Below, in pieces: positions 5,993-23,242 of a DNA stretch of 64,000 bases (position 1 is the first letter of the stretch; each line of letters opens with the position of its first letter). The stretch is from positions 1,222-65,221 of the forward strand of contig JBKPML010000075.1 in the NCBI GenBank assembly GCA_046732135.1, written 5' to 3'. The notes below the pieces were generated by a model, which worked only from the letters and a program-made list of their open reading frames with translations, did not search any database and was not told the DNA's origin. This DNA comes from Actinomycetota bacterium (GTDB lineage Bacteria; Actinomycetota; Actinomycetes; Propionibacteriales; Propionibacteriaceae). The position numbers were made by a program, and so were the translations under genes.

Positions 5993-6498
5993 CGATTTTC
6001 CTCCTCTTGGCCCTTCAATGCGTTCGGCACTTTGCCCAGGGTTTCGGTGGTTTGCTGCAAGCCGCGGATTCGCTTCATCTCAGCGCGGCCGAGCGACCCC
6101 AGAATCGCGGCGACGATGGCCCAGACGATGGCCACGATCAAAGCACCCCACTGAACCCCGCTGGGCTGCGCACCCTCGCCAATGAATTGGCCGAGGCCGA
6201 CGGCGGCACTGAGAGAAACGAAGACCAGGAACAAGATCCCAGCCACGCCGGCGCCGGCGAGCAGGCCGATGCCCTTTCCGGCCCGCTGACCCGACTGCCG
6301 TAGCTCTGCCTTGGCCAGTGCGACTTCCTGGCGCATCAGCGTCGAGACGTCGCGACTGACGTCACCGAGGATCTGGCCGACGCTCCGGCCGTCCTCGGAC
6401 TCCATCGCTCCCCGCGAAGTGGAATATCCCTCGCGCGCCGCATCTACCACTGAGTTTGGCTCTGTGGAGGCATGCGTGGGTGTGTATTCAGTGCTCAT
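5989..6498 (-). CDS. Actinobacterial holin-X family (phage holin superfamily) membrane protein
   Basis: DVSTLMRQEVALAKAEL followed by two TM helices; coupled to both neighbours by 4-bp overlaps. Confidence 0.8.
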   Translation of the reverse strand: MSTEYTPTHASTEPNSVVDAAREGYSTSRGAMESEDGRSVGQILGDVSRDVSTLMRQEVALAKAELRQSGQRAGKGIGLLAGAGVAGILFLVFVSLSAAVGLGQFIGEGAQPSGVQWGALIVAIVWAIVAAILGSLGRAEMKRIRGLQQTTETLGKVPNALKGQEEENR

Positions 6499-7409
6499 CG
6501 GTTGAGATCACCCTGTCCACCGTACGGCGCCTCGTCGCCCGCATTTGTGCCGCCGCTCTCCGACATGCTGCCCTCGGCGTAGCTACCCATGGAACGCCTG
6601 GCTTCCTCGCCACCACCGCTCGTGGCATAGCCAGTGTCGTAGCCGGTCGCATAACCAGTGTCCGGAACAGTTGTGGTGTAGCTGGCTGGCGTGCTCTCGT
6701 AGAGCGATCCACCGTAGCCATACTGAGGCGACTCGTCCTTCGAATCGAGGCTTGTGTTCGCGGCAACCGCGCTGCGCCCGAGCCGGCCTACCACGATGCC
6801 GGCCAACGCGCATAGCCCAAGGAACATCGCCGGGCGACGGCGCGCGTACGAGCGGATGTCCTCCAGCAAGTCACCTGGCTCTTTGTTCTCCAGCCAGTGG
6901 GCGACTTCGCCGGTCTTCCGGGAGGCCTGCTGCGCCAGGTCGCTCATGGGTCCCGACTGCTCGGTGCCGGCGCCCATCGAGCCAAGCTCTTTGGAGATGG
7001 AGTGAACGGCTTCGGCTAGTCGTGACTGCTGCGTGCGACCCTGGCTACGGACCTCATCGCTGACCGTGCCCAAAAGGCTCTTTGCCTGTGTGGTCGCTTC
7101 ATCCTTGACCGTGACTGCTTGATCGCGAGCCGTGGCGGCAACATTCCTGCCGGCGTCAACTGCAGTGTCTTTGACCGCGCCGGCTTCACCTTTGGCCGTG
7201 TCCCTGGTCTCCGAAAAGCGGGATCCGCCGGAGTCAGCTGACGACTCATCCACCGTGCCGTACGAAAGATCTGCCGGCTGGGACGGAACATCGGTGTAGG
7301 CCTCAGACGAGACCGGCTGATCGGTTGAGTAAGGCTCCGGGACGGCGCCTTCGGTTGAGCCGCCAGACGTCATGGGGTCGGAACCCTGACCGTACGTTGG
7401 GTTACTCAC
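6495..7409 (-). CDS. LEA-like / general stress hypothetical protein
   Basis: Ala/Thr/Asp-rich helical repeats, FARRRP-type motif (YARRRPAMFLG) and TGYA/TGYD repeats. GTG 7409 is preceded by GGAG. Confidence 0.65.
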   Translation of the reverse strand: MSNPTYGQGSDPMTSGGSTEGAVPEPYSTDQPVSSEAYTDVPSQPADLSYGTVDESSADSGGSRFSETRDTAKGEAGAVKDTAVDAGRNVAATARDQAVTVKDEATTQAKSLLGTVSDEVRSQGRTQQSRLAEAVHSISKELGSMGAGTEQSGPMSDLAQQASRKTGEVAHWLENKEPGDLLEDIRSYARRRPAMFLGLCALAGIVVGRLGRSAVAANTSLDSKDESPQYGYGGSLYESTPASYTTTVPDTGYATGYDTGYATSGGGEEARRSMGSYAEGSMSESGGTNAGDEAPYGGQGDLNR

Positions 7410-7500
7410 ATTTAGCTCCGTTCTTGCTCGTCCCGCAGTCTCGGGCTGCGTCGGCACCCGGGCAGCGGGAGGCGTATCTGTTGATGCGCCAAATTGACAT

Positions 7501-7524
7501 TACCCCGTCCTTTACGGTGTAAAC
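7501..7524 (-). promoter_or_regulatory. SigB/SigF-type promoter
   Basis: Minus strand reads GTTT-N15-GGGTA, an exact match to the actinobacterial SigF-type consensus, upstream of the 7409 operon. Confidence 0.7.
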
Positions 7525-7553
7525 CGCGGGGGGTGATTCCTTTGCCGGAATCC

Positions 7554-7799
7554 TCAGGAACGTAGGACCTCACTCGAGGCGCCGCTTTCGGCGAACTGCA
7601 TGAGGAATTTGTGGCAGCGGGCTGCCCGCTCTGAGTCTTCCTTCATGACCTGCTCAAAGAACTCGGCGATCTCATCTTGACCAGCGTTGCGTGCATCCCG
7701 GACGTACTGCCCGTAGTCATGCCCAGCCTTGAGGGAGTGGTACTGGACACTGATGAGGTCGTAGCTGACGTCGTCGAAACCGGTCTCGCCGGTTGCCAT
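7554..7799 (-). CDS. Small conserved ferritin-like/helical stress protein (81 aa)
   Basis: GGAGG RBS then MATGETGFDDVSYDLISVQYHSLKAGHDYGQYVRDA...; two predicted helices with E/D/H residues. Confidence 0.7.
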   Translation of the reverse strand: MATGETGFDDVSYDLISVQYHSLKAGHDYGQYVRDARNAGQDEIAEFFEQVMKEDSERAARCHKFLMQFAESGASSEVLRS

Positions 7800-7837
7800 G
7801 GCAAACCTCCTCGAGTGTGGTTGGGGACAGTGCCGGT

Positions 7838-7863
7838 ATGCCCGTTTCGGGCCCGGCTCAAAC
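7838..7863 (-). promoter_or_regulatory. SigB/SigF-type promoter
   Basis: Minus strand reads GTTT-N16-GGGCAT about 35 nt upstream of ATG 7799. Confidence 0.55.
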
Positions 7864-7941
7864 ATCGTGAGATGAATGATCTTCGATGGCCGGAGTAGCG
7901 TCGGGCCAGCCGAACTAGCAGGTCCGTCGGGAGGAGGGCCC

Positions 7942-9174
7942 GTGCATATCGCCCTGGTATCCGAGCACGCCAGTCCGCTGGCCGCGATCGGCGGGGTTGA
8001 CGCGGGCGGGCAGAACGTGCACGTGGCGGAGCTCGCTGCGGGCCTCGTCCGGCTGGGTCACCAGGTAGCCGTGTACACCAGGCGCGACTCCGCCGACCTA
8101 CCAGAGAAGGTGACAACCGACGCTGGCTATTGCGTGGTCCACTTGACCGCAGGGCCTGATCGACCGGTGCCGAAGGACGAGCTCTGGGCTCATATGTCGG
8201 TATTCGCCTCCGAGCTTCGGAGGAATCTCGATCTTGAGCGTCCCGACCTCGTGCATGCGCATTTCTGGATGTCGGGCTGGGCGGCCGCCGAGGTCGGCCG
8301 GCAGCTCGAACTCCCAGTGGTGATCACGTTCCATGCCCTGGGCACGGTCAAGCAGCGCCATCAAGGTCCTGCGGACACCAGCCCGGAAGAGCGGATCGAG
8401 GTAGAGGCAGCGATTGGCCGCCGGTGCGATCACATCATCGCGACCTGCCGGGATGAGGTGGCCGAGCTGGGCCTGATGGGAATCCGTGCCGACGGGATTT
8501 CGATCGTGCCGTGTGGCGTCGATGTCAAGCACTTCGCGCCGGTCACCCGCGCAAGCCGGTCCGACCGCGAATTTCCGTTCCCACGGAAGGCCAAGTTCCG
8601 GCTGCTCAGCGTCGGCCGCCTTGTGCCGCGCAAGGGACTGGGCACGGTGATCGAGGCTATGTCGCGGTTGCCGGACGCGGAGTTGATCATCGCTGGAGGG
8701 GACGGCCCTGCCGACGTGGCCTCGGAATCTGAACGTGTCCGGCTGGGCCAGCTCGCGGACACGGAGGGCGTTGCCGACCGGATTCGCTTCATCGGCCAGA
8801 TATCGCGAGCCGAGATGCCCCGACTGCTTCGATCGGCTGATGTGGTGGTTTGCGCGCCGTGGTACGAACCTTTCGGCATCGTGCCACTCGAGGCGATGTC
8901 CTGTGGCGTGCCGGTCGTCGGAAGCGCGGTCGGCGGCCTGCTGGACTCGATCGCCGATCAGCGTACGGGCATTCTGGTCCCACCCCACCAGCCGATCGCG
9001 ATTGCCGACGCCGTGCGACTGCTTCTTGATCATTCCGATCTTCGGGCGGACTTCGGCCGCGCGGGACGCGAACGAGTGCTTGCCCACTACTCATGGGACC
9101 GAGTCGTGGCGGCAACCTCGGAAATATTCGCTCAGCTGGTCGCAGCAGGCCGCAGAGAAGTTAATTACCTTTAG
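7942..9174 (+). CDS. GT4 glycosyltransferase (MshA-like fold)
   Basis: SEHASPLA...GGQNVHV, HAHFWMSG, GRLVPRKG and EPFGIVPLEAM motifs. GAGGAG RBS before GTG 7942. Confidence 0.9.
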   Translation: MHIALVSEHASPLAAIGGVDAGGQNVHVAELAAGLVRLGHQVAVYTRRDSADLPEKVTTDAGYCVVHLTAGPDRPVPKDELWAHMSVFASELRRNLDLERPDLVHAHFWMSGWAAAEVGRQLELPVVITFHALGTVKQRHQGPADTSPEERIEVEAAIGRRCDHIIATCRDEVAELGLMGIRADGISIVPCGVDVKHFAPVTRASRSDREFPFPRKAKFRLLSVGRLVPRKGLGTVIEAMSRLPDAELIIAGGDGPADVASESERVRLGQLADTEGVADRIRFIGQISRAEMPRLLRSADVVVCAPWYEPFGIVPLEAMSCGVPVVGSAVGGLLDSIADQRTGILVPPHQPIAIADAVRLLLDHSDLRADFGRAGRERVLAHYSWDRVVAATSEIFAQLVAAGRREVNYL

Positions 9175-9176
9175 GT

Positions 9177-9202
9177 ATTTTCATTCTTCCGGTTATGGGT
9201 AA
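9177..9202 (+). promoter_or_regulatory. Internal SigB/SigF-type promoter candidate
   Basis: ATTT-N16-GGGTAA in an AT-rich gap, 11 nt before the carbamoyltransferase start. Confidence 0.4.
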
Positions 9203-9213
9203 CGCTTCTCCTT

Positions 9214-10854
9214 GTGCGAGTTCTGGGCATCAATGCGGTGTTTCACGACTCTGCTGCGGCAGTGGTCGTTGACGGCCGTACCGTTGCCGCCGCCGAGGAG
9301 GAGCGCTTCAGCCGCCGCAAGCACGCCAAACGAGCAGTGCCGTTCTCGACGTGGGAGCTTCCTGAGCAGGCCATCGCGTGGTGTCTGGCCGAGGCGGGCC
9401 TCGAAGCAGCTGATCTGGACGGAGTCGGCTACTCGTACGATCCGGCTTTGGTCGATCCGGCATCGGGCAGACTTGACCCGGCGTGGGAAGAACTGCGCAC
9501 TACCTACGCGACCCGAGCGCCACAGTTCCTGAAGACGGTGCTCCCTGGCTACTCACCCGAGATCTTTGCGTTTGTCCGGCACCACGTTGCCCATGCCGCC
9601 TCGGCCGGCCTAGCAGCACCATTCGGACCGGGTCCGAGTTTGGGTGATTGCGCGGTGTTCGTTGCCGATGGCCGTGGCGAGGCGACAGCCATGCTGGCCG
9701 GTGAGTATCGCGACCGCAAGCTCGACCTCCTGGCCTCCCAGCGCCTGCCGCATTCCCTCGGCCTGCTGTACGAGGACCTGACTGCACATCTGGGGTTTGA
9801 GCGATCGAGTGACGAGTACAAGGTGATGGCTCTGGCGTCGTACGGGACGCCCAGACACATCTCGCTCTTCCGCCGCCTGGTCTATGCCACCGGCGAGGGC
9901 GGCTTCCGCACCGAGCCCGTCGACTGGGCAGCTCTGGCGCCCCTGCACGAGCCCGGCGCCGACTTCGACGAGCGGCACGCTGACCTCGCCTGCAGCGTGC
10001 AGACTGTGCTCGAGGAAGTGCTGCTCGACCTATGTGGCTGGCTGCACGAGCGGACCGGCAACAACAAGCTTGCCCTGGCCGGTGGAGTGGCGCTGAACTG
10101 CGTGGCCAATACTCGACTGTTCGCCGAAAGCCCCTTCCGCGAGATCTGGGTCCAGCCGGCATCGGGCGATTCGGGCACGGCGCTCGGTGCTGCCTTGACC
10201 CTCGTCGCGGAGTCGGGCGAGGACATAGTGCCGATGACTAACGCCGCCCTCGGGCGCGGCTGGAGCGACGCAAACCTCGAACAGATCTTGATCAACGCCA
10301 GGGTGCCGTACGAAAGACCGGACGACATAGCACGGGCCGCCGCCGAGGTGATCGCCGGCAATGGTGTTGTCGCCTGGTTCCAGGGCCGAGCCGAGTACGG
10401 TCCCCGGGCACTTGGCCACCGTTCGCTGTTGGCTCATCCCGGGCGCGCGGACAACGTCGAGCGACTGAATGAGATAAAGGGCCGCGAACAATTCCGGCCC
10501 GTCGCGCCGATGGTCTTGCTTGAGCGAGCCGCCGAAATCTTCACCCGCGGTCCGGTGCCGAGCCCGTATATGCTCTTCGTCCACGATGTTGCGCCAGAGT
10601 GGCAGGATCGGCTGCGAGCAGTGACCCACGTCGACGGTACGGCCCGAATTCAGACGGTCGATCGAGCGGAAGATGACCGCATGGCCTCGCTGCTATCGGC
10701 CTTCGATCGGCTCACCGGCATACCAGTCGTCGTCAACACAAGCTTGAACACTGCCGGGCGGCCCATGGTTGACAGCCCACGTGACGCTTTGGAGCTGTTC
10801 GGCTCAGCGCCAATTGACGCGCTGGCCATCGGGCCCTATCTCCTGCGCCGATGA
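9214..10854 (+). CDS. Carbamoyltransferase, CmcH/NodU family
   Basis: HDSAAA, EEERFSRRKH, HHVAHA, EYKVMALASYG, GGVALNC, GPRALGHRS, KGREQFRP and NTSLN motifs. Confidence 0.95.
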   Translation: MRVLGINAVFHDSAAAVVVDGRTVAAAEEERFSRRKHAKRAVPFSTWELPEQAIAWCLAEAGLEAADLDGVGYSYDPALVDPASGRLDPAWEELRTTYATRAPQFLKTVLPGYSPEIFAFVRHHVAHAASAGLAAPFGPGPSLGDCAVFVADGRGEATAMLAGEYRDRKLDLLASQRLPHSLGLLYEDLTAHLGFERSSDEYKVMALASYGTPRHISLFRRLVYATGEGGFRTEPVDWAALAPLHEPGADFDERHADLACSVQTVLEEVLLDLCGWLHERTGNNKLALAGGVALNCVANTRLFAESPFREIWVQPASGDSGTALGAALTLVAESGEDIVPMTNAALGRGWSDANLEQILINARVPYERPDDIARAAAEVIAGNGVVAWFQGRAEYGPRALGHRSLLAHPGRADNVERLNEIKGREQFRPVAPMVLLERAAEIFTRGPVPSPYMLFVHDVAPEWQDRLRAVTHVDGTARIQTVDRAEDDRMASLLSAFDRLTGIPVVVNTSLNTAGRPMVDSPRDALELFGSAPIDALAIGPYLLRR

Positions 10855-12380
10855 CCGCCGCGACGACGGATCTTTCTGTTGACTTCGCAGTGGTCATCCC
10901 GACAATCGGTCGCTCCAGCCTGCGTGAGCTGATCGCCGCTGTTGACGGTGAGCCGGCGCCGGCGTGCATCGTGGTCGCCGACGATCGGCGGGATCCCGCA
11001 CCCCATCTGCCGTTGCCACAGACGCGGGCCCGTCTCGTGGTGGTGCGCAGCCACGGTCGGGGGCCGGCAGCAGCGAGGAATGCGGGCTGGCGGGCCACAG
11101 AGTCGGAGTGGGTGGCGTTCTTGGACGACGACGTCCAGGTGCCAAACGACTGGTGCGCCCAGCTCGTCCGCGATCTTCGCGAGCTGCCGGCGAGCGTCGC
11201 TGCTTCCCAGGCCCGGCTGCACGTGCCTCACCCGGCCGGACGGCGCCCCACCGACGAGCAGCGACACACCACCAGCTTGGTGAGTGCACGATGGATTACT
11301 GCCGACATGGCATACCGCCGCTCGGCCTTGATGGCTACCGGCGGCTTCGACGAGCGGTTTCCACGCGCCTTCCGCGAAGACTCCGACCTGGCGCTGCGGA
11401 CGGTCCGCGCCGGATATTCCATCCTGTGGGGTGATCGGGTGACCACCCATCCCCTCACTTCCCGCGGGGGGTGGCGCAGCAGTCTGCGTGCTCAAGCCGG
11501 GAATGCCGACAACGCCTTGATGCTCGCCAAGTATGGGAAAGGTTGGCGCAGGCTGATCGCCGCCGGACGTGGCCGCACCGGTGTCCATGCGATGACAGTC
11601 GCCTGCGGGGCGGGGGCATTGGCCGCCATCGCCACCCGGCGTCCTCGTGTCCTGGCTGCATTCGCCGTTGGATGGACGGCCCTGACGGCAGAATTTGCGA
11701 TAGAGCGCATCCTTCCCGGGCCGCGGACCTCACGCGAGGTCGGCACCATGCTGGCCACCAGTGCCGCAATACCACCGCTAGCCATTGCGCATCGGCTACG
11801 GGGCGAGTGGGCCGTGCGACGAGCCAACTGGCGATGTCCGCAGTTCGACAACCGGCCGAGGGCTGTCCTGTTCGACCGGGACGGGACATTGATCAAGAAT
11901 GTCCCTTATCTGGCCGACCCCGGACGCGTCCAGCCTGTGCCTGGGGCCGGTCAGACCTTGGCGGCACTACGCCGCAATGGCATCGCTGTCGGCGTGATCA
12001 GCAATCAGTCTGGAGTGGCCCGCGGCTTGATCACTCCTGATCAGCTCGCATCGGTGAATGCCCAGGTGGAATCCCTGCTGGGACCCTTCGACACCTGGCA
12101 GCTCTGCACTCACCACCCGCACGACGCCTGCTCCTGCCGCAAGCCGGCGCCCGGCATGGTGGCCGCCGCCGCCGAGGCGCTCGGATTGCCCGCCAAGGAT
12201 TGCCTGCTCATCGGCGACACGGGAGCCGATATCGATGCCGCGCTGACTGCGGGAGCTCGCGCGGTGCTGGTACCGAACGCGGCGACCCGGCGAAGCGAAA
12301 TCGACCGTGCAGCCGTGGTTGCCTCGGTAGCACCCACCCTGACCGCTGCCGTACGGCAGAGTGTGGGACGGCTGGCGTGA
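10851..12380 (+). CDS. gmhB: Fusion of GT2 glycosyltransferase and GmhB-type HAD-IIIA heptose-1,7-bisphosphate phosphatase
   Basis: N-term VVIPTIGR, AARNAG, FLDDD and GGFDERF..REDSD. A hydrophobic linker follows, then C-term FDRDGTL, CxH..CxCRKPAPGM and GD..D. Confidence 0.85.
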   Translation: MTAATTDLSVDFAVVIPTIGRSSLRELIAAVDGEPAPACIVVADDRRDPAPHLPLPQTRARLVVVRSHGRGPAAARNAGWRATESEWVAFLDDDVQVPNDWCAQLVRDLRELPASVAASQARLHVPHPAGRRPTDEQRHTTSLVSARWITADMAYRRSALMATGGFDERFPRAFREDSDLALRTVRAGYSILWGDRVTTHPLTSRGGWRSSLRAQAGNADNALMLAKYGKGWRRLIAAGRGRTGVHAMTVACGAGALAAIATRRPRVLAAFAVGWTALTAEFAIERILPGPRTSREVGTMLATSAAIPPLAIAHRLRGEWAVRRANWRCPQFDNRPRAVLFDRDGTLIKNVPYLADPGRVQPVPGAGQTLAALRRNGIAVGVISNQSGVARGLITPDQLASVNAQVESLLGPFDTWQLCTHHPHDACSCRKPAPGMVAAAAEALGLPAKDCLLIGDTGADIDAALTAGARAVLVPNAATRRSEIDRAAVVASVAPTLTAAVRQSVGRLA

Positions 12381-13432
12381 CTTGGGCCCCCGACCCGGCC
12401 CGTCGTGGCCACGTACTCGTTGCTCGGCTCGACAGCCTCGGTGATCTGCTGCTCGCCGGTCCTGCGGTACGGGCTGTCGCTGGTTCGGCCGCAAAGGTGA
12501 CGATGCTGGTTGGCCGCGGCCGACGTTCCGACGCCTTGCTACTTCCTGGCTTGGACGACGTGATCGAGTTCGATGCTCCGTGGGTCGTCTTCGAGCCGGA
12601 GCCGGTACGGCTGGAGCAGATGACAGCGCTCATCGATGCGGTTCACAACTCAGGAGTAGACGCGGCCCTGATCTTGACCTCATTCCACCAATCGCCGCTG
12701 CCGCTGGCGCTGCTCCTGCGGATGGCCGGAGTCGACTGGATTGGCGCGATTAGCGACGATTACCCCGGTTCCCTGCTTGATCTTCGCCATCGAGTTGCAG
12801 GCTCGCCGCCGGAGTCCGAGCGCAATTTGTCCCTTGCCCAAGCCGCTGGCTTCCTGCCCGACGAGCGCGGTGCTCGGCTGGCCGTACGGCGGCCGCTGCC
12901 TGACGCGACGCCGTGGACCGGCACGGGTCCGTATGTCGTCTTCCATCCGGGTGCCTCGGCCAGCTCACGCCGGCCGATTGCAACCCATAGTCGCATCCTG
13001 GTTGCTGCCTTGGCTGATGCCGGCCATCGGGTAGTCGTTACCGGCTCGGCGGCGGAGACCACCTTGGCGTCCAGCGTTGCCGACGGCGACGCCCTGGACC
13101 TTTCCGGACAGCTCGACCTGCCACACCTTGCCGCGGTGCTCGACGGCGCGCAGGTTGTGATCGCCCCGAACACTGGTCCCGCTCACTTGGCAGCAGCCGT
13201 TGGCACACCGGTTGTCTCGCTGTTCGCCCCGGTCGTGCCTGCCGCAAGTTGGGCGCCGTACGGTGTGGCCTCAGCTGTCCTTGGCGACCAGGAGGCAGCT
13301 TGTCGCGACTCGCGAGCCAAAGTCTGTCCCGTGCCCGGCCATCCCTGCCTGACCTCGATCCGGCCGCAAGAGGTCGTTGCTGCCGTCGACAGGCTCGCCT
13401 CACCGGAGTTGGTGCCGCATGAGCTCTATTGA
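12377..13432 (+). CDS. GT9 glycosyltransferase (ADP-heptose heptosyltransferase-like)
   Basis: RLDSLGDLLL, FHPGAS and NTGPAHLAAAVGTPVVSLF. GTG 12377 overlaps the upstream stop. Confidence 0.9.
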   Translation: MTWAPDPARRGHVLVARLDSLGDLLLAGPAVRAVAGSAAKVTMLVGRGRRSDALLLPGLDDVIEFDAPWVVFEPEPVRLEQMTALIDAVHNSGVDAALILTSFHQSPLPLALLLRMAGVDWIGAISDDYPGSLLDLRHRVAGSPPESERNLSLAQAAGFLPDERGARLAVRRPLPDATPWTGTGPYVVFHPGASASSRRPIATHSRILVAALADAGHRVVVTGSAAETTLASSVADGDALDLSGQLDLPHLAAVLDGAQVVIAPNTGPAHLAAAVGTPVVSLFAPVVPAASWAPYGVASAVLGDQEAACRDSRAKVCPVPGHPCLTSIRPQEVVAAVDRLASPELVPHELY

Positions 13433-14015
13433 TCAATCCGCACGCCACCACCTCGTCGAGGATCACCTGGCGGCGCTGGCCTTGGCTGCGGATGGCGCTC
13501 GGCCCTTCGGCCCGGTCATTGCCGCATGGGCGGACCAGCTAGCCAACGTCTTCGGTGCCGGAGGCCGGCTGCTGGCGTGCGGCAATGGCGGAAGTGCGGC
13601 GGAGGCCCAGCACCTGACCGGTGAGCTGGTCGGCCGATTTCGTTACGACCGCCAGCCGCTCTCGGCGATCGCATTGGGCGCCGATATAGCCGCGACGACG
13701 GCGATCTTGAACGACTACGGGACCGAGGAGATCTTTGCCCGCCAAGTCAGGGCACACGGCCAGCCGGGCGATGTCTTGGTTGCCTTTTCCACCAGCGGCA
13801 CGAGCGCCAACGTGGTCGCGGCGGCCAAGGCCGCCCTCGAGACCGGCATCACGGTCTGGGCGCTGACCGGGCCGGCGCCCAACCCGCTGGCTGCGCTGTC
13901 CGACTCGGCGATTCCAATTGATGCACCAACGGTCGCAACCGTTCAGGAAATCCATCTTTCGGTCGTGCATGCGCTGTGTCTCGCGCTCGACAGCGCTCTC
14001 GGAGTTCCAACGTGA
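13419..14015 (+). CDS. gmhA: Sedoheptulose-7-phosphate isomerase (SIS domain)
   Basis: GNGGSAAEAQHLTGELVGRF, FARQV, STSGTSANV and QEIH motifs. Confidence 0.9.
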   Translation: MSSIDQSARHHLVEDHLAALALAADGARPFGPVIAAWADQLANVFGAGGRLLACGNGGSAAEAQHLTGELVGRFRYDRQPLSAIALGADIAATTAILNDYGTEEIFARQVRAHGQPGDVLVAFSTSGTSANVVAAAKAALETGITVWALTGPAPNPLAALSDSAIPIDAPTVATVQEIHLSVVHALCLALDSALGVPT

Positions 14016-15439
14016 CGAACGAGCCCCTGATGATCGTCGGCGACTCGCTGCTCGATGTCGATATCGAAGGATCCGCTGACCGGCTGAGCCCCGAAGCGCC
14101 GGTACCCGTCGTTGATGTAAAGCGGACTTGGCATCGGCCTGGAGGCGCCGGGCTGGCTGCGCTGATCGCAGCTCAGTCCAACCGCGAAGTGATCTTGATC
14201 ACCGCAATAGGCACCGACGATGCAGGCGACAAGCTCCGTGAGCTGCTGGAGTCGGTGGTCCAGCTGCGACCGCTCCGTCTCCGCGGGACGACCGCCTGCA
14301 AGACTCGGGTTTCCGCTGCAGGTATGCCGATGCTGCGACTTGACACCGGCGACGGCCGAGCGGAAGGCGTCGAAGTGCCGTCCTTGATCACTGACTTATT
14401 TGATCAGGCCGGAGCAATTCTGGTGTCTGATTACGGTCGAGGAGTCGCTGGATTGCCGGCTGTACGTGAGCAGTTAGCTCGCAGCGCGCCCCGGATTCCG
14501 GTCGTCTGGGATCCTCATCCGCTTGGCGCAGATCCAGTCGCACGATGTGCCATGGTCACTCCGAACTCGGCCGAGGCCGCCAAGCTCAGCGGCACGGACG
14601 AGCCCGAGACCCAGGGCCGCCTCTTGTGCGAGCGATGGCAGGCTGCTGCTGTGGTGATAACCCGCGGCGATCGTGGTGCAACCGTCACCTCCGCCGATTC
14701 CCTGATCACCACGACGGTGCCCCTCCTTGATCGCCAGGCGCGGCTGCGGCCGGACACGTGCGGCGCCGGCGATGCCTTCGCGGTTGCGGCGGCCGAGGCG
14801 CTTCGAAGTGGCTCCGATTCCGAGCATGCGGTCAGAGCAGCAGTGAGCAGAGCCGCCACGTATGTGAACGCAGGAGCCGCGGCGTCCTTCTCAACTGCCG
14901 CTGCGGCCGCTCAGGTGCCAGGGTCCGGTGCGGCAGCGGAGCGCCGGAATGCCTTGGAGCTGGCGGATCGCATCCGGCGCACGGGTGGGCGACTCGTCGC
15001 GACAGGTGGTTGCTTCGACCTGCTACATCGAGGTCACGTGAGCCTACTGGAACAGGCGCGGGCGCTCGGCGACGCGCTGATTGTCTGCCTCAATTCCGAT
15101 GTGTCGGTGCGCCGGGCCAAGGGTCCGGGCCGGCCGGTCGTTCCGCAGCAGGACCGAGCCCGCGTTCTGTCCGCGCTCGCCGCTGTTGACGGCGTCGCGA
15201 TCTTCGACGAATCCACGCCGGCGGAGCTGCTCGCCAAACTGCAGCCAGATATCTGGGTCAAAGGGACCGACTATGCCAACCGACCAATGCCCGAGGCCGA
15301 AATCGTCCGGCAGTTCGGTGGACAGGTCGTCCTTGTCCCAGTAGTGCCCGGCTATTCGACAAGCCGGCTGGTCGGAACCGCACTGCAGCGCCCGTCTGCC
15401 CAACCACCCAGATCCAGCGTTCCCCAGGAGGCTTCATGA
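14012..15439 (+). CDS. hldE: Bifunctional heptose-7-P kinase / heptose-1-P nucleotidyltransferase
   Basis: PfkB domain (GDSLLD..RLSPEAPVPV, DTCGAGD) fused to a CTP_transf domain (TGGCFDLLHRGH, LNSD.SV...KGPGRP, KGTDY). Confidence 0.9.
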   Translation: MTNEPLMIVGDSLLDVDIEGSADRLSPEAPVPVVDVKRTWHRPGGAGLAALIAAQSNREVILITAIGTDDAGDKLRELLESVVQLRPLRLRGTTACKTRVSAAGMPMLRLDTGDGRAEGVEVPSLITDLFDQAGAILVSDYGRGVAGLPAVREQLARSAPRIPVVWDPHPLGADPVARCAMVTPNSAEAAKLSGTDEPETQGRLLCERWQAAAVVITRGDRGATVTSADSLITTTVPLLDRQARLRPDTCGAGDAFAVAAAEALRSGSDSEHAVRAAVSRAATYVNAGAAASFSTAAAAAQVPGSGAAAERRNALELADRIRRTGGRLVATGGCFDLLHRGHVSLLEQARALGDALIVCLNSDVSVRRAKGPGRPVVPQQDRARVLSALAAVDGVAIFDESTPAELLAKLQPDIWVKGTDYANRPMPEAEIVRQFGGQVVLVPVVPGYSTSRLVGTALQRPSAQPPRSSVPQEAS

Positions 15440-16182
15440 CCACATCCACCATGCCCAACTCCTCGCCAGCAATGGCTGCTTCGATTGACGGCCAGGCGAC
15501 GCTGGGCACCATCCTGGTAACCGGCGGCGCATCCGGACTCGGCGCGGCGACCGTGGCAGCCGTACGCGCGGCCGGTGGCACACCACTAGTCCTGGACGTT
15601 GCAGCACCAGCAGAGGATGTGCCGTACGAGCGGGTGGACCTCGCCGACTCCAGTGCTGCCGAACGAGCGGTGAATGCCGTTGTTGCCGCCAGCGGGGGAC
15701 GGCTCGACGGTGTGTTCACCGCTGCTGGCATCGATTCCTGCGGTCCCCTTGATCAAGTTCCAGCTGCCAACTGGGAACGAGTGATCAAGGTCAACCTGAT
15801 CGGGACTGCCGCAGTGATCCGGGCAGCGCTGCCGTACCTGAAACGCAGCCATGGTCGGGTGGTCACGTGCGCGTCGACTCTGGGCATCAAGGCGGTGAGC
15901 GATGCCACTGCATACTGCGCTTCAAAGTTTGGCGTCGTCGGCTTCACCCGAGCCTTGGCCGCCGAGACTGCCGGTGAGGTCGGCGTTACTTTGCTGATCC
16001 CGGGCGGTATGCACACCCACTTCTTCGACGACAGGACGGAGCAGTACAAGCCACCGCCGGACGCGAAGCTCAACCAGCCGGCCGACGTCGCCGCAGCCGT
16101 TGTGTTTGCGTTCAGCCAACCGGCGGGCTGCGAAGTTCGCGAGCTGGTGGTCTGCGCGTCAACCGAGGGTTCCTGGCCCTGA
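15436..16182 (+). CDS. SDR family oxidoreductase
   Basis: TGGASGLG and YCASK motifs; coupled to hldE by a 4-bp overlap. Confidence 0.85.
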   Translation: MTTSTMPNSSPAMAASIDGQATLGTILVTGGASGLGAATVAAVRAAGGTPLVLDVAAPAEDVPYERVDLADSSAAERAVNAVVAASGGRLDGVFTAAGIDSCGPLDQVPAANWERVIKVNLIGTAAVIRAALPYLKRSHGRVVTCASTLGIKAVSDATAYCASKFGVVGFTRALAAETAGEVGVTLLIPGGMHTHFFDDRTEQYKPPPDAKLNQPADVAAAVVFAFSQPAGCEVRELVVCASTEGSWP

Positions 16183-16184
16183 CG

Positions 16185-17147
16185 GTGCGACACGTCCTGA
16201 TTCTGCGTGCCCTCGGCCTCGGGGACTTTCTCACTGGTGTACCGGCATATCGGGGCCTGCGGTCGGCGTATCCAGACGCAGTGCTGACTCTCGCCGCGCC
16301 GGCGTATCTACAGCCGCTTCTGCCGCTCACTGGCGCAGTCGATCGGTTGCTGGCAACCGAGAGCTTGGGTCGGCTCACTCCCACCGCGCCCGAGCCCGAT
16401 CTTGCCGTCAATCTGCACGGCCGCGGCCCCGAAAGCATCGACGATCTGATGGGCAGCGGCGCGACAAAGTTGATCACCCACCGCCACCCGCTCCGGCCCC
16501 AGGTGGCCGGGCCGGACTGGCTGGATGAAGTACACGAGGTTCATCGCTGGTGCCGGCTCCTTGACTTCGCCGGCATCTCCAGTGACCCCCTTGATCTCCG
16601 ATTGGCCACACCTGACCTATCGCCGCCGGTATCCGGCGCCATTGTCCTTCATCCTGGTGCGGCCGCCCCCGCGCGACGCTGGCCGGCCGAACGGTTCGGG
16701 GCTGTGGCCCGCCAGTTTGCAGATACCGAACTTCCGGTTGTGGTGACTGGCACCTCGGGTGAGGATCGAACCGCCGAGACGGTGATCCGATCCGGGGGCT
16801 TGCCGCCCACCAGTAATCTCTGCGGCAAACTTGATCTTGCTCAGCTGGCCACCTTGATCGCCAGTGCCGAGCTCGTGATCAGCGGCGATACCGGCGTCGC
16901 TCATCTTGCCAGCGCGTACGCCACACCGTCGGTTGTTCTATTCGGCCCAACCCCACCAAGCCTCTGGGGTCCGCCACCCGACGGTCCACATACCGTGCTC
17001 TGGGACGGTTCCATAGGGGATCCGCACGCCAAGCGGCCCGACCCCGGTCTGCTCAGCATCGATATCGAAGCAGTAGTCCGGGCTGCCCGTGCACGTCTGG
17101 AGCAGGCGGTTGAAGTCGAGCGACGCCTCAAGTCGCTTGTCCGATGA
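16185..17147 (+). CDS. Second GT9 glycosyltransferase
   Basis: RALGLGDFLT, LHPGAAAPARRWP and GDTGVAHLASAYATPSVVLFGP motifs. Confidence 0.9.
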   Translation: MRHVLILRALGLGDFLTGVPAYRGLRSAYPDAVLTLAAPAYLQPLLPLTGAVDRLLATESLGRLTPTAPEPDLAVNLHGRGPESIDDLMGSGATKLITHRHPLRPQVAGPDWLDEVHEVHRWCRLLDFAGISSDPLDLRLATPDLSPPVSGAIVLHPGAAAPARRWPAERFGAVARQFADTELPVVVTGTSGEDRTAETVIRSGGLPPTSNLCGKLDLAQLATLIASAELVISGDTGVAHLASAYATPSVVLFGPTPPSLWGPPPDGPHTVLWDGSIGDPHAKRPDPGLLSIDIEAVVRAARARLEQAVEVERRLKSLVR

Positions 17148-17209
17148 GTCTTGACTGCCGGGCCGGTCTGCAGTTGAGGAGGTAAATCGCAGCGGAAAGG
17201 GGAAGTCTG

Positions 17210-17842
17210 ATGACCAAGGTGCTGGCCGGAATCACCACATCGGTCGATGGATACATCACCGGACCGGACGACGGCCCTGGCAACGGCTTGGGCACGGGCG
17301 GCGAGCGACTCCACTACTGGGTGTTCGGCGGACCGTGGACATACGCCGAGGAGCGGGGCGAGCCGACGGGCGAGGATGCTGCCTGGCTGGCGGAAATGTC
17401 GTCGCGCGCCGGAGCGGTGGTCGGCGGCCGCTGGACCTACGAGTCCGCGGGAGCCTGGGGAGGAGAGAACCCGTGGGGAATGCCGTTCTTCATCGTCACG
17501 CATCGACCGGAGGAGGAGCCCGAGGGCAAAGGGTTCACGTTCATCCGTGGCGTGTCAGAAGCCATCGAGCAAGCCAGGAAGGCCGCCGGGGACAAGGACG
17601 TTCACGTCATGGGTGGAGCCGACGTAATCCGCCAGGCGCTCGATGCGGAGTTGGTTGACGAGCTGAGCATCGTCATCGCGCCCGTCGTTCTGGGCGGTGG
17701 GAAGCGCCTGTTCGAAGGGTTTTCGAAATCGTTGGATCTTGAGCACCTCAGCGCACGACAGTCACCGTACGCGACGTTCATCAGCTACCGCGTCAAAACG
17801 GCCATGACGATCGACGCTGCAGTAAGTAAGGATGCGCGCTGA
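17210..17842 (+). CDS. Dihydrofolate reductase-like (RibD C-terminal) protein
   Basis: TSVDGYI, VVGGRWTY, MGGADV and PVVLGGGKRLF motifs. Confidence 0.85.
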   Translation: MTKVLAGITTSVDGYITGPDDGPGNGLGTGGERLHYWVFGGPWTYAEERGEPTGEDAAWLAEMSSRAGAVVGGRWTYESAGAWGGENPWGMPFFIVTHRPEEEPEGKGFTFIRGVSEAIEQARKAAGDKDVHVMGGADVIRQALDAELVDELSIVIAPVVLGGGKRLFEGFSKSLDLEHLSARQSPYATFISYRVKTAMTIDAAVSKDAR

Positions 17843-18728
17843 CGCGGCGGGTCCCGCCTTCCATCTGTTACGCATCATCCAGCAGCGGTACGGGTTGGAT
17901 ATTTCGAGCGAAGCGCCAAGGCTGACCGGCGGCTATGCCAATGACGTCTTCCTGCTGCAAGGCCCTTCCCCAGTTGTCTTGCATATCAAGCATCCGCCAG
18001 TCGATCTCGAGAGCCTGGAATGGGAGCATCGGTTGGTCGGGCTGGTGTCGGAACGGCTTTCGGAAGTGCCTGCACCGCTGGCGGCACGGAATGGCGTGAC
18101 CTTCTTCGTCCATGAGGGGCAACCGGTATGGCTCACTCCGTACGTATCCGGGAGCCCGCCCAGCGCAATGATCGCCGTGCGGTCGCGGCTGCCCTGGGCC
18201 GTCTGCACGCTACCAAGATCAACATCTCTGCTAGGCCCGGTCACGCCAGAATTGGGGACCTTCCGATTCCTCCGGTGCGCGAGATGCCACCGAATTTCGA
18301 GGCCTGGTTGCCGACAATCCACCAAGCTCGGGCCGACATGATCAAGCTGATCTCACAGCTCAACCAAACCCGACAGCTCACGGTGGGCGTGACTCACAAC
18401 GACATTTCCAGGGAATGTCCTTGTCCAAGACGGCGAGGTCACGGCCCTTCTTGACTGGGAAGAGGCCGATATCGACTGGCTGGTGTGGGACCTCGCCACC
18501 AGCATCTGGCCATTTTGTGACAGCGCTGGCACCGTCAACGCCGCAGTCGCTGACTTCCTCAGCAGCTACCGGGCTGCAGGAAGTCGCGTACCGCCCGACG
18601 AGGAGGATCTGATCATTCCGCTCCTCCGCGCAAAGCGAATCCTTGAGGTGCTTCGAGCACCCACTGACCGTCATCCGTGCTGGGATCTTCAGCTGGCAAA
18701 CCTTCGTGCGTATTCCGCGCTGACTTGA
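17832..18728 (+). pseudogene. Aminoglycoside phosphotransferase/homoserine kinase-like gene split by two frameshifts
   Basis: Three pieces: GGYANDVF..., then ALGRLH...THNDI, then PGNVLVQDGEV..LDWEE. Breaks are at about 18152 and 18407. Confidence 0.7.
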
Positions 18729-18738
18729 TCCAGAACCG

Positions 18739-19701
18739 TCATGACAGCGCAGCGTCGGCAAAGGCGGCATCCCAATCGCACAGGAAGCGGTCGATGCCGT
18801 ATCGCTCAAGCGCGGCCGCGCGGGCATTCTGGCCACGGCGTGCTGCCTCGTCCGGGTCGTGAAGCAGCATGCGGGCCGCCCGGATGAGCTCTCCCACATC
18901 GCTGGACAACGCACCTGCCTGCGGCGGTACCGCTCGAGGCGCTTCCGTCGTCTCCAGCACGACCACGGGCATTCCGAGCAGCATGGCTTGAATCAGCGAC
19001 AGTCCCAAAGACGTCCAGCGGTTGAGGTGCAGGTACACCCGACGGGCCGCCATGGCGTCGTAAAGCTCTTCAGGGCGGAGATTTCCGGCGAATCTGACCT
19101 GAGCGGCCGTCGGCTCCAGCGCATTCGGTAGCAGATCCGCATCGATGCCGAACGCGTCGATGGAAAGTCCGTCGAAGTGCCGCAATAGGTCGGTGCCCGT
19201 AACCCGCCACCGGCGTACGGGCTCGTTGACCACGAATGCGAGCCGGTCCAGATCACCCTGATAGCGCTGCCCGGGGTCGGCGATTCCGTGTTCGATCACC
19301 CGTCTCGGCGTGTCCCCACAGTCCCAGAACAGGTCGTTGAAGTACGTGACGTGGACGATCTGCAGTCCAGGCATGTCGGTCAGCGGATGGCGAGTGTTGG
19401 GCACGTCATACTTCGGCGTGTTGTGCTCGAGGAAGATGGTTCCAAGATCGACACCTGGCGTTCGGCGGATTTGCTGGCGAAAGATGTCCAGCTCCTCCAG
19501 TCGCTGGAACACGACCACATCCGGCGGTATGTCGCGCAGCTCGTCCGCTGTCACCTCCCGAGTTGAGGCGGGCGGAGATCCCTGATAGCGAGCCAACCCA
19601 CCGCGACCCCGCTCATCCGGCGGCAGGAAGAGGTACTCGTGCGAACCCGCGACCAGCGAATCGGTGTAGCCGCCGTGCACATCCCACATCAAAATCCTCA
19701 C
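18739..19701 (-). CDS. GT-B (GT4-like) glycosyltransferase
   Basis: MRILMWDVHGGY, RWRVTGTDLL and YLHLNRWTSLGLSLIQAMLLGMPVV motifs. Confidence 0.8.
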   Translation of the reverse strand: MRILMWDVHGGYTDSLVAGSHEYLFLPPDERGRGGLARYQGSPPASTREVTADELRDIPPDVVVFQRLEELDIFRQQIRRTPGVDLGTIFLEHNTPKYDVPNTRHPLTDMPGLQIVHVTYFNDLFWDCGDTPRRVIEHGIADPGQRYQGDLDRLAFVVNEPVRRWRVTGTDLLRHFDGLSIDAFGIDADLLPNALEPTAAQVRFAGNLRPEELYDAMAARRVYLHLNRWTSLGLSLIQAMLLGMPVVVLETTEAPRAVPPQAGALSSDVGELIRAARMLLHDPDEAARRGQNARAAALERYGIDRFLCDWDAAFADAALS

Positions 19702-21275
19702 GGCGCGTCGACTGCGACAAGCAGCTGCCGTTCTAGCACCGTGGGTAGAGACAGCGTGCGGTAACCCACATCGGAAAAAAGTACGGTGATCTCGTCGCCC
19801 TCGAGGCTCATCACCACGCCCGTGCCGAAGGTGTCATGCCGAACCTCCTGTTCAACGGCAAACGGTCCAGGCGACCTTTCGTCGGTGGCCCTACCGGCGC
19901 GGCAGTTGTCGCAGTCGCCGCATAGTCCGGCAGCCGCCTCGCCGAAGTACTGCAGCAGGAACTGCCGCCGGCAACCTGTCGTCTCGGCGTACGCACGCAT
20001 CATCTCGATGCGCGATTTCTGGATCGAGCGATAGGCCTCAGCCCTCGCGATCAGCTGCTCGACGGCCGATGTGTCGGGATCGAGCATTGTCTCGGCCAGC
20101 AGGTTGAGGATGCGACCAACCGCTCGCGCGCTGATCCCAGCCTTTTCGGCCAGCGAAGCTCGGGTCGCATCCGGGTCAGCGGCGAGCGCACCGAGAACGG
20201 CGGTCACATTGTTTGGCTTGGGTATCGGGGCCGTGAAAAAGCGGGCCAGCCCCAAGTCCTCAGGCCGGTAGAACAAGACCCCAAGAGCAGGTTGGCCGTC
20301 GCGGCCAGCCCTGCCGACTTGCTGGTAGTACTCATCGGGCGATTCCGGAGCCTGTGCGTGCACCACGAACCGAATGTCCGGCTTGTCGATACCCATGCCA
20401 AACGCCGAGGTGGCGACCATGATCTCCAACCCGCCGATCATGAAGGCTTGCTGCACGTCCTCCCGGACACGTTTCGGCAGGCCGGCGTGATAGGCGGCCG
20501 CAGGGAGTCCGAGGCCTCGCAGCTCTTCGGCATAGTGCTCAGCAGCCTTGCGCGTTGCCACGTAGACGATGCCAGGTCCGGCCGTCGTCGAAACGGCTTC
20601 CGTGACTTTCTTTTCCTGATCCGGCTCGTCCAAGCACCGGGTGACGGACAAGAATATGTTTTCCCGAGCGGTGCCACCTACCACAATCACCGGCTCGCGC
20701 AGGCGCAGGCGCTCGAGGATGTCTTTGCGGACCGGAGGAGCCGCAGTGGCGGTCAGCGCGATAGTGCGGGCACCATCGATCCCTTCTAGCAGCTCGCCCA
20801 AACGCAAGTAGTCCGGTCGGAAATCATGGCCCCACGACGACACACAGTGGGCCTCATCGATCGCGATCAATGTCGGGCGCATGGCGGTGACCGCGGTAAG
20901 GACTTCCTCATTGGCCAGCTGCTCGGGCGCTAGAAATAGAAACTCGACCCGTCCGGCAGCCGCATCACCCAGTGCCTGGTTCCGCTCTTTTTTCGTCTCC
21001 GCGGAGCTAACCCTCCGGGCAACGGTCTGGCGGCCATACTCCTCCAGCCGCGTTGTCTGGTCCTCCTGTAGGGCCAGCAGCGGCGAGACGACGAGCGTGG
21101 GACCCTCCATGAGCACGGCAGGCAGCTGGTACGCCAGCGACTTGCCGCCGCCAGTTGGCTGAACGAGCAGCACGTCATGTCCGTCGAGCAGGGCCCGCAC
21201 CGCCTCGTACTGCCCCGGCCGAAGCGACTCATGACCGAAAACCCGCCGGGCCGTTTCGACGATCTGACCACTCAC
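19698..21275 (-). CDS. recQ: RecQ family ATP-dependent DNA helicase (no HRDC; Tudor-like C-terminus)
   Basis: PTGGGKS, DEAHCVSSWGHDFRPDY, ALTATA, QQVGRAGRDG and Zn-site CRR...CGDCDNC. Confidence 0.9.
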   Translation of the reverse strand: MSGQIVETARRVFGHESLRPGQYEAVRALLDGHDVLLVQPTGGGKSLAYQLPAVLMEGPTLVVSPLLALQEDQTTRLEEYGRQTVARRVSSAETKKERNQALGDAAAGRVEFLFLAPEQLANEEVLTAVTAMRPTLIAIDEAHCVSSWGHDFRPDYLRLGELLEGIDGARTIALTATAAPPVRKDILERLRLREPVIVVGGTARENIFLSVTRCLDEPDQEKKVTEAVSTTAGPGIVYVATRKAAEHYAEELRGLGLPAAAYHAGLPKRVREDVQQAFMIGGLEIMVATSAFGMGIDKPDIRFVVHAQAPESPDEYYQQVGRAGRDGQPALGVLFYRPEDLGLARFFTAPIPKPNNVTAVLGALAADPDATRASLAEKAGISARAVGRILNLLAETMLDPDTSAVEQLIARAEAYRSIQKSRIEMMRAYAETTGCRRQFLLQYFGEAAAGLCGDCDNCRAGRATDERSPGPFAVEQEVRHDTFGTGVVMSLEGDEITVLFSDVGYRTLSLPTVLERQLLVAVDAP

Positions 21276-21402
21276 GATGACCCAGCTTGCACAACCCGCA
21301 AGAGCAGGCCGCGGCGGGGATCGCCATCCACCGTCAATGGTCTCTTGCTAGCCACCGTAGGCGTAGTCGGCAATGATCATTACACGACTGAAGGGAGTGA
21401 CC

Positions 21403-22047
21403 ATGCGCGCACGTCTTGCTCTCGGGACAGCTGTCGTGATGCTGCTGGTGACCGCATGCACGGTCACCAATGGCTCAGGCACAGTTACCACCGAATCTCG
21501 GCCGGTCAGCGGATTCCACGCTGTGGAGATCTCCGGCGTCGGGGAGCTGTCGATCGAGCAGACTGGCACCGAGTCACTGACCATCTCGGCGGAAGACAAC
21601 CTTCTGCCACTGCTGACCAGCGAAGTCAGTGGCGGCACCCTGAAGCTCGAAAAGAAGCGCAATGCGTTCATCCGGACCACCAAGCCCATCAAATACACCA
21701 TGACGGTCAAGGACTTGACGGCCCTTGGCATCTCCGGGTCGGCCACCGTACGCGCATCCCAGCTCAAAACGTCCAATCTCCAGATCGATATCAGCGGCTC
21801 GGGCAAGGTCACCGCCGCAGGACGGGCCGATAATCAAAAGCTGGACGTGTCCGGCTCCGGCAGCTACGAGGCCGCCGACCTCTCCGGGAAGAGTGCGACG
21901 ATCGACATCTCCGGGAGCGGCCAGGCCACCGTCAATGTGAGCGACAAGCTCGACGTACAAATCAGCGGCAGCGGCTCGGCGACCTACACCGGAAATCCTC
22001 AAGTCAGCCAGGACATCAGCGGTTCCGGAAAGTTGATCAAGAAGTAG
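21403..22047 (+). CDS. Lipoprotein with head GIN (DUF2807) domain
   Basis: AGGGAG RBS, lipobox LVTAC and repeated xISGSG units. Confidence 0.85.
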   Translation: MRARLALGTAVVMLLVTACTVTNGSGTVTTESRPVSGFHAVEISGVGELSIEQTGTESLTISAEDNLLPLLTSEVSGGTLKLEKKRNAFIRTTKPIKYTMTVKDLTALGISGSATVRASQLKTSNLQIDISGSGKVTAAGRADNQKLDVSGSGSYEAADLSGKSATIDISGSGQATVNVSDKLDVQISGSGSATYTGNPQVSQDISGSGKLIKK

Positions 22048-23188: not shown

Positions 23189-23242
23189 AGGCACATGATC
23201 GTGGGGATCACCGCCCGCCGCCACACCGATACGCTCTGCGCC

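Follow-up and report, generated by a model that had tools for sequence, protein, structure and literature searches.

The cwg gene set was reportedly named in Streptomyces by Hong, Paget and Buttner in 2002. In S. coelicolor, sco6179-6190 form the 12-gene cwg ("cell wall glycan") operon, cwgA-L, which is sigma-E dependent and induced by vancomycin (PMC6767563), and cwgA is induced by salt (PMC13011467) and by cold (bioRxiv 2025.04.11.648403). Its annotations include a nucleotide-sugar dehydratase (sco6179; bioRxiv 2025.04.11.648403), a "dehydratase" (sco6182), a putative heptosyltransferase (sco6183), a phosphoheptose isomerase (sco6186) and a bifunctional synthase/transferase (sco6187), with transferases around them; sco6178 is a divergently transcribed polysaccharide deacetylase. 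In the papers searched, which date from 2019 to 2026, the cwg product is still only "predicted" (PMC6767563; PMC13011467; bioRxiv 2025.04.11.648403). Here, a window of 64,000 nucleotides from a bacterium of the Propionibacteriaceae (assembly GCA_046732135.1, contig JBKPML010000075.1, positions 1,222 to 65,221 of the forward strand) was analyzed, and its genes between positions 7942 and 19701 were identified by sequence comparison as containing orthologs of cwgB-cwgJ, the core of the actinobacterial cwg operon.

The closest chemically solved analogue of this set is the inner core of Pseudomonas lipopolysaccharide (LPS), which has the structure GalN-HepII-HepI with a 7-O-carbamoyl group on HepII and is made by WaaC, WaaF, a glycosyltransferase of family 4 (GT4) and the putative carbamoyltransferase WapO/PA5005 (PMC8005017). 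Like that system, the window encodes WaaC-like and WaaF-like glycosyltransferases of family 9 (GT9), a GT4 enzyme, a NodU-family carbamoyltransferase and a supply of ADP-heptose. By contrast, it has no functions for 3-deoxy-D-manno-oct-2-ulosonic acid (Kdo) or lipid A, and no LpxC, heptose kinases or HldD; its GT4 enzyme is nearer to sucrose-phosphate synthase (SPS) and MshA than to WaaG, and in the first of its GT9 enzymes (GT9a) the motif NTG replaces DTG.

Two further systems share parts of this logic. The similarity of the GT4 enzyme, its basic residues and the presence of a HAD phosphatase domain in the operon recall the two-step reactions of SPS with its phosphatase and of MshA/MshA2; however, the HAD domain of the window has the zinc loop of GmhB and the N-terminal part of HisB and is needed by the heptose pathway itself, and the window has seven further enzymes. 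ADP-heptose is similarly made in a Gram-positive host by the GmhA, HldE and GmhB homologs of the septacidin (sep) and hygromycin B modules of Streptomyces, an actinomycete. Their clusters, however, are strain-specific and include genes for tailoring, acylation and the aglycone, whereas the set in the window adds only glycosyltransferases, a carbamoyltransferase and a short-chain dehydrogenase/reductase (SDR) to the heptose supply and is found phylum-wide.

Nine Genes and Their Correspondence to the cwg Operon

Gene families were assigned by Pfam and NCBIfam scans of the window proteins, start positions were refined from the junction sequences, and the start of the first gene was placed by its ribosome-binding site. 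The features are as follows.

7942-9174, plus strand: retaining-type GT4 glycosyltransferase, cwgG ortholog (Pfam Glycos_transf_1 and Glyco_transf_4)
9214-10854, plus strand: NodU/CmcH/TobZ-type O-carbamoyltransferase, cwgB ortholog (Pfam Carbam_trans_N and Carbam_trans_C)
10851-12380, plus strand: family 2 glycosyltransferase (GT2) fused to a GmhB-like HAD-IIIA phosphatase, cwgC and cwgD (Pfam Glycos_transf_2 and HAD)
12377-13432, plus strand: GT9a, WaaC-like, cwgE ortholog (Pfam Glyco_transf_9)
13419-14015, plus strand: GmhA, sedoheptulose-7-phosphate isomerase, cwgH ortholog (NCBIfam phosphoheptose isomerase models, motifs)
14012-15439, plus strand: bifunctional HldE, heptose-7-P kinase and heptose-1-P nucleotidyltransferase, cwgI ortholog (Pfam PfkB and CTP_transf_like)
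15436-16182, plus strand: classical SDR (Pfam adh_short)
16185-17147, plus strand: GT9b, WaaF-like, cwgJ ortholog (Pfam Glyco_transf_9)
18739-19701, minus strand: compact, converging GT4-like gene, cwgF ortholog (weak Pfam Glycos_transf_1)
7800-7941, no strand: divergent intergenic region 5' of the operon (promoter scans)

The first gene starts at a GTG at 7942 behind GGGAGGAGGG, its longest open reading frame (ORF) running from 7876. Five of the seven plus-strand junctions are overlaps (four of the ATGA or GTGA type and one of 14 nt), the remaining two are gaps of 39 nt and 2 nt, and all nine ORFs are full length relative to their orthologs. The genome that carries them measures 3.17 Mb in 181 contigs and is ~92% complete, and its closest relatives at the locus are metagenome-assembled genomes of Propionibacteriaceae and Microlunatus. 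An earlier note, made from the sequence alone, had named these nine genes in a monoderm actinobacterium, described the plus-strand genes as mostly coupled by overlaps, and added the converging GT4-like gene to the set. All nine are present and intact at the coordinates listed above, the junctions bear out the coupling, the converging gene does belong as the ortholog of cwgF and a conserved member of the cluster, and the relatives at the locus make the view of the host a reasonable one. The same note presented the pathway as undescribed, which does not hold: the cluster is the long-named cwg operon, common across the phylum.

The link to cwg was tested through the published 29-mer of the cwg promoter (PMC6767563), with the proteins of locus L117 standing in for those of S. 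coelicolor; loci are called "Streptomyces-type" here by inference from the promoter match and from agreement with the published gene annotations. With one to three mismatches, the 29-mer occurs in 7 of the 301 genomes of one genus (5.5-12.4 Mb), and its reversed control gave 0 matches in those 301 genomes. In L117, the promoter lies ~240 bp before an epimerase/dehydratase gene that is the first of 12 genes, followed in order by genes for the carbamoyltransferase, GT2, HAD, GT9, compact GT4, GT4, GmhA, HldE, GT9, GT2 and GT2, and a polysaccharide deacetylase is divergent from this run, in agreement with sco6178. Nine L117 genes show 46-64% identity to the window proteins. The annotation of cwgD as a "dehydratase" is accounted for by the resemblance of the GmhB-like HAD domain to HisB. 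Another Streptomyces-type locus, L116 (G623:C1:6066001-6086000), has the promoter with one mismatch and only GT2 and GT4 matches in the 18 kb downstream, and is apparently a truncated cwg locus.

All nine functions of the cwg core (carbamoyltransferase, GT2, GmhB-like HAD, GT9, compact GT4, GT4, GmhA, HldE and GT9) are thus found in the window, with differences in arrangement. The cwgC and cwgD functions are fused in the window and separate in Streptomyces-type loci, the GT2-GmhB fusion being the common form outside the latter. The GT4 gene stands first in the cluster, whereas the cwgF ortholog lies 1.6 kb downstream in inverted orientation, where it is coupled to recQ. The classical SDR is additional to the Streptomyces-type set, and no ortholog of it was found beside the Streptomyces-type clusters fetched. 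No homolog of cwgA, the nucleotide-sugar epimerase/dehydratase gene, or of the GT2 genes cwgK and cwgL was found in or beside the cluster of the window, which accordingly falls short of the 12 genes by which cwg is defined.

Predicted Supply of ADP-Heptose

From their families and motifs, GmhA, HldE and the GmhB domain would together make ADP-heptose. GmhA scores 160-173 bits with the NCBIfam phosphoheptose isomerase models, under their cut-offs, and 143 bits against solved GmhA structures; the motifs GNGGSAAEAQH..E, STSG and QE..H..H are present, and the His/Glu/Gln/His set of catalytic and zinc-binding residues is kept. The GT2-GmhB fusion of 509 amino acids comprises Glycos_transf_2 at residues 14-135 and HAD at 337-502. 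Its HAD part reaches 108 bits with the NCBIfam GmhB model (cut-off 178) and exceeds the cut-offs of the HAD-IIIA and histidinol-phosphatase domain models; the GmhB motifs DRDGT, SNQSG, C-x-H...C-x-C, RKP and GDxxxD lie within residues 337-476 and align to the solved structures 4pnh and 3l8h. Domain II of HldE (TIGR02199) scores 182 bits against a cut-off of 181.5 and the kinase domain (domain I) 137 bits against 345, with 4e84 (kinase) and 5x9q as solved relatives. The names GmhA, HldE kinase and GmhB are therefore carried by active-site motifs and context, since the scores are under the cut-offs. No match above the HldD family cut-off was found in the genome; formation of L,D-heptose by HldD was thus rejected, and the heptose would not be epimerized to the L,D form.

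The C-terminal motif of HldE in the window is PGYSTS, without the (F/L)xxGRSTT pattern that has Arg at the fifth position. GRSTT is the hallmark of promiscuous (STTR5-type) nucleotidyltransferases that also make CDP- and UDP-heptose (PMC11573728). Tyr occupies this position in 62 of 83 cwg-type HldE orthologs, whereas Arg is found there in Streptomyces-type loci (GRSST, versus GYSTS in the window) and in some others. Several genomes, for example G007, G256, G370, G208 and G003, have a further HldE paralog of 34-43% identity 5-20 kb from the cwg-type HldE. It may be a separate module of the "tridomain NDP-heptose synthetase" kind, which Tang et al. are said to have treated in 2022.

Glycosyltransferases, Carbamoyltransferase and SDR

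The best solved relative of GT9a is WaaC, and that of GT9b is WaaF (1psw, 66 bits). GT9b keeps the equivalent of the catalytic D13 and the canonical DTG..H motif. GT9a also keeps the D13 equivalent and has R in place of K192 and N in place of D261; the resulting NTGPAHLA is near-invariant across ~95 GT9a orthologs, whereas canonical GT9 enzymes have DTG and WaaC, WaaF and WaaU of E. coli all carry Asp at this position.

For the GT4 enzyme encoded at 7942-9174, the best solved relatives are the SPS Tll1590 (6kih, 240 bits) and MshA (3c4q, 177 bits). The residues aligned to MshA K78 and R154, which we take to be the basic residues that bind inositol phosphate, are retained by the window protein and by all of the orthologs tallied; at the acceptor site of MshA, Y110 is replaced by F and T134 by A. 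In the compact cwgF-like GT4, the Pfam Glycos_transf_1 match is weak and confined to the C-terminal half, and a sequence search among solved structures returned no useful relative. Its AlphaFold model (pLDDT, the predicted local distance difference test, 91) has a complete, compact GT-B fold with a TM-score of ~0.7 to BshA, PimB' and a methylmannose-polysaccharide mannosyltransferase, and the fold search indicated no specificity. Residue 238 of this protein, at the second Glu position of the GT4 EX7E motif, is Gln in the window and in L037 (LLEAM to LIQAM) and Glu in the other 22 aligned orthologs, a clade-specific change.

The carbamoyltransferase has, at near full length, the two-domain architecture of a Kae1-like N-terminal part and a C-terminal carbamoyltransferase domain. 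Its residues 8-546 align to 7xb6, NovN and GdmN, and TobZ matches strongly over part of the protein, residues 254-545. With 59-89% identity to its orthologs, it forms with the SDR (60-83% identical in orthologous clusters of other lineages) the most conserved pair of the set. Searches bearing on the substrate of the SDR found only generic SDR relatives among solved structures and family models.

Distribution of the Gene Set

More than 545 relatives of the GT2-GmhB protein were found in a collection of species-representative genomes, and tblastn searches of the best 80 loci found clustering of these genes across many genera, including members of the Propionibacteriaceae, Nocardia, Mycobacterium, Mycolicibacterium, Amycolatopsis, Prauserella, Saccharopolyspora, Actinomadura and Kineococcus. 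Of 401 genomes drawn evenly from the class, 95 have an HldE homolog, representing 59 of 174 genera, and the cluster was seen again at 20 of these HldE loci, from many families. In the fetched DNA, all nine genes occur together in 36 of 101 related loci, most of the others ending at contig edges; the grouping is not a product of chance.

Among near relatives the distribution is patchy. The one other genome of the same family that was sampled outside the genus of the window has none, and in another family of the same order only 2 of ~21 genomes gave a match. The window proteins have closer counterparts in Nocardia and Amycolatopsis than in L098, which is from the same order; this hints at loss and horizontal transfer of the cluster. 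L099 (G311), from the genus of the window, is a reduced or rearranged version: only the GT4, GT9a, a match to the kinase domain of HldE and GT9b are present, and the carbamoyltransferase, GmhA, SDR and GT2-GmhB were not detected at the locus.

Promoters and Flanking Genes

A GTTT-N15-18-GGGTA motif is located 59-81 bp before the start of the GT4 gene in five of the six closest relatives, and across the 3.17 Mb genome the pattern is rare, with just 21 matches. We take it to resemble the general-stress (SigB/SigF-type) promoters of actinobacteria. An AAC-N-CGTCT search in four Streptomyces-type loci gave matches within coding sequence only, which were discarded, and a consensus promoter and terminator scan of the cluster performed no better than shuffled controls.

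Upstream of the cluster, a minus-strand run comprises a BrkB-family gene (4226-5266), a DUF3618 gene (5318-5992), a holin-X-family gene (5989-6498) and an ORF of 320 amino acids (6495-7457) without a family match. A match to the GTTT-N15-18-GGGTA pattern, GGTTTACACCGTAAAGGACGGGGTAA at 7500-7525 on the minus strand, lies ~40 bp before this ORF, and the run that it heads looks like a stress operon adjoining the glycan cluster. Between this run and the GT4 gene, and divergent from the latter, is an ORF of 81 amino acids (7554-7799, minus strand) that has a strong GAGGAGG ribosome-binding site, no Pfam match, and 84% identity in the nearest relative, L001.

On the downstream side, which also holds recQ, a RibD_C-family gene and a short ORF of 169 amino acids, whose APH match is N-terminal only, occupy 17210-18341 on the plus strand and separate GT9b from the inverted GT4-like gene. 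The two stand next to each other in the relative L005, with the GT4-like gene directly 3' of GT9b, and from this comparison the stretch 17210-18341 looks like an insertion or rearrangement scar. The start of the cwgF-like gene overlaps the recQ stop codon by 4 nt (the pair spans 18739-21275, minus strand), and because of this overlap the two are probably co-transcribed in the window. A recQ homolog also lies beside the cluster in the distant lineages of L064, L079, L093 and L100. Beyond recQ are a DUF2807 gene (putative adhesin head domain; 21373-22047, plus strand) and a PGA_cap/CapA-family gene (22037-23224, minus strand).

Proposed Pathway and Destination of the Product

The best overall explanation, which we consider reasonably probable, is that the cwg core makes ADP-heptose and from it a carbamoylated heptose glycan, probably one of the cell envelope. 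As homology suggests, soluble glycosyltransferases, working in the cytoplasm or on the inner side of the membrane, would build a short oligosaccharide. The GT4 related to SPS and MshA may act on an anionic, probably phosphorylated, acceptor; GT9a and GT9b, by their likeness to WaaC and WaaF, would add two heptoses; further sugars would come from the GT2 domain and the compact cwgF-type GT4; and the TobZ/NodU-type enzyme would O-carbamoylate one residue. The assembly logic would then copy the carbamoylated Hep-Hep-hexosamine inner core of Pseudomonas LPS. The most speculative steps are those that may follow, in which the product would be bound for the cell envelope, as the name cwg proposes, primed and exported by genes elsewhere in the genome, and made mainly under stress. 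The earlier note had likewise proposed a carbamoylated heptose glycoconjugate that is probably stress-induced; this is reasonable and agrees with the Streptomyces data on sigma-E, vancomycin, salt and cold. Its additional remark that ADP-heptose is an agonist of ALPK1 is general knowledge, without specific bearing on this environmental genome. No published structure of any orthologous cwg product was found in the papers searched, up to 2026.

The chances that the product is an envelope glycan are about even. In favor of this destination, the accessory genes that accompany the set in other lineages encode a UDP-glucose dehydrogenase, an epimerase/dehydratase, extra GT2 enzymes and a pyruvyl-transferase-like protein, which are typical of wall or capsular polymers, and the Streptomyces cwg operon sits in a regulon dominated by envelope functions (PMC6767563).

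Several observations weigh against this explanation or parts of it. With regard to the enzymes, three of the four activities of the heptose pathway (GmhA, the HldE kinase domain and the GmhB domain) are under the NCBIfam equivalog cut-offs, and the donor of GT9a may differ from ADP-heptose because its invariant Asn replaces Asp261, which contacts the heptose. With regard to the product, none has been isolated from any cwg-type cluster, and the steps beyond gene assignment remain inferential; moreover, the product of the window need not equal that of Streptomyces, since cwgA, cwgK and cwgL are missing and the SDR has no counterpart beside the Streptomyces-type clusters fetched. With regard to regulation, neither a sigma-E-type AAC-N15-19-NGTC motif nor a CGTCT box was found at 7651-7945 of the window, and the exact GTTT-N-GGGTA motif of the relatives was not found upstream of the GT4 gene, where only a degenerate version is present. 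The absence of the sigma-E motif bears on regulation and not on orthology, because sigma factors differ between families. Finally, no convincing transmembrane segment was detected in any of the nine proteins, and no polyprenyl-phosphate priming transferase, flippase, ABC exporter or LytR-CpsA-Psr (LCP) ligase was found among the recurrent families within ~10 kb of the cluster in 101 loci (flanking families were obtained by crude ORF clustering, with antisense artefacts of high-GC DNA set aside, and ten of the remaining recurrent families were scanned with Pfam); together, these absences weaken the envelope destination.

The same features raise the possibility, appreciable but on the whole rather unlikely, that the product of the cwg core is an O-carbamoylated heptose oligosaccharide which stays soluble in the cytoplasm and serves to protect against stress or as an intracellular polysaccharide. 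Synthesis would begin with the SPS/MshA-like GT4 acting on a sugar or polyol phosphate, the HAD domain could dephosphorylate the intermediate, and the GT9 pair and the other glycosyltransferases would extend it, in a manner comparable to sucrose, the precursors of mycothiol, and the mycobacterial polymethylated methylglucose lipopolysaccharides (MGLP) and methylmannose polysaccharides (MMP). Both best solved relatives of the GT4 act on small phosphorylated acceptors, and the conserved basic residues of the enzyme fit an acceptor of this kind, although the MshA acceptor-site residues Y110 and T134 are altered. The nine proteins are all soluble, the 101 loci show no recurrent exporter, flippase or priming transferase, the closest relatives have a promoter motif of the general-stress type, cwgA responds to salt and cold (PMC13011467; bioRxiv 2025.04.11.648403), and BshA and the cytoplasmic methylmannose-polysaccharide mannosyltransferase are among the structural neighbors of the cwgF-like GT4. 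However, five glycosyltransferases and a carbamoyltransferase are elaborate for a solute, the characterized GT9 enzymes use membrane-anchored LPS, the accessory genes of other lineages are of the wall or capsule type, and the Streptomyces regulon is dominated by envelope functions, as noted above. If this is true, monoderm bacteria would have an intracellular, stress-induced glycan of a new class, heptosyltransferases of the LPS type would for the first time be seen to serve a physiological role away from a membrane-anchored acceptor, and GT9a, with its NTG motif, would have a donor or acceptor chemistry unlike that of any characterized heptosyltransferase.

It is improbable that the GT9 enzymes heptosylate a cytoplasmic protein in the manner of TibC/AAH, with the other enzymes extending or decorating a protein-linked glycan. 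ADP-heptose-dependent cases are known in bacteria (cited in PMC9978623 and PMC11573728), all of the enzymes of the set are cytoplasmic, and lipid-carrier genes are absent among the cluster and the recurrent flanking families; however, among solved structures GT9a and GT9b match WaaC and WaaF, with no TibC-type chain at E <= 0.01, and the cluster is not accompanied from lineage to lineage by any conserved protein that could be the acceptor. More improbable still is a secondary-metabolite locus for a heptose natural product of the septacidin or hygromycin B kind: actinomycete compounds do use ADP-heptose made by GmhA, HldE and GmhB homologs, and TobZ/NovN-type carbamoyltransferases are typical of antibiotic clusters, but no gene for aglycone formation, acyl transfer, resistance or export is present here or in related loci, the window corresponds to cwg and not to sep or hyg, and dozens of genera have retained its gene order and content, unlike those of strain-specific antibiotic clusters. 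A remnant of LPS synthesis was rejected, since LpxC was not found in the genome and the acceptor of the GT9 enzymes consequently cannot be Kdo2-lipid A.

Significance

The cluster is real and intact and had been delimited correctly, and it is a compact variant of an operon that is common and has a name but whose chemistry is unsolved. Since the set is thus neither new nor rare, the discovery is a modest one; what it adds is a minimal set and mechanistic pointers, not a new system. The nine-gene version, without accessory sugar-nucleotide genes, is convenient for heterologous expression, and it contributes testable details, namely the invariant NTG of GT9a, the retained phosphate-binding residues of the GT4 and the absence of a linked exporter. 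That sigma-E targets the cwg operon in Streptomyces has been known for more than 20 years, and, on the present evidence, about a quarter of the sampled genomes of the class carry it. The identity of the product would explain why bacteria without LPS have an LPS-type ADP-heptose pathway and WaaC/WaaF-like enzymes, and would show what cell-envelope stress calls for in these organisms.

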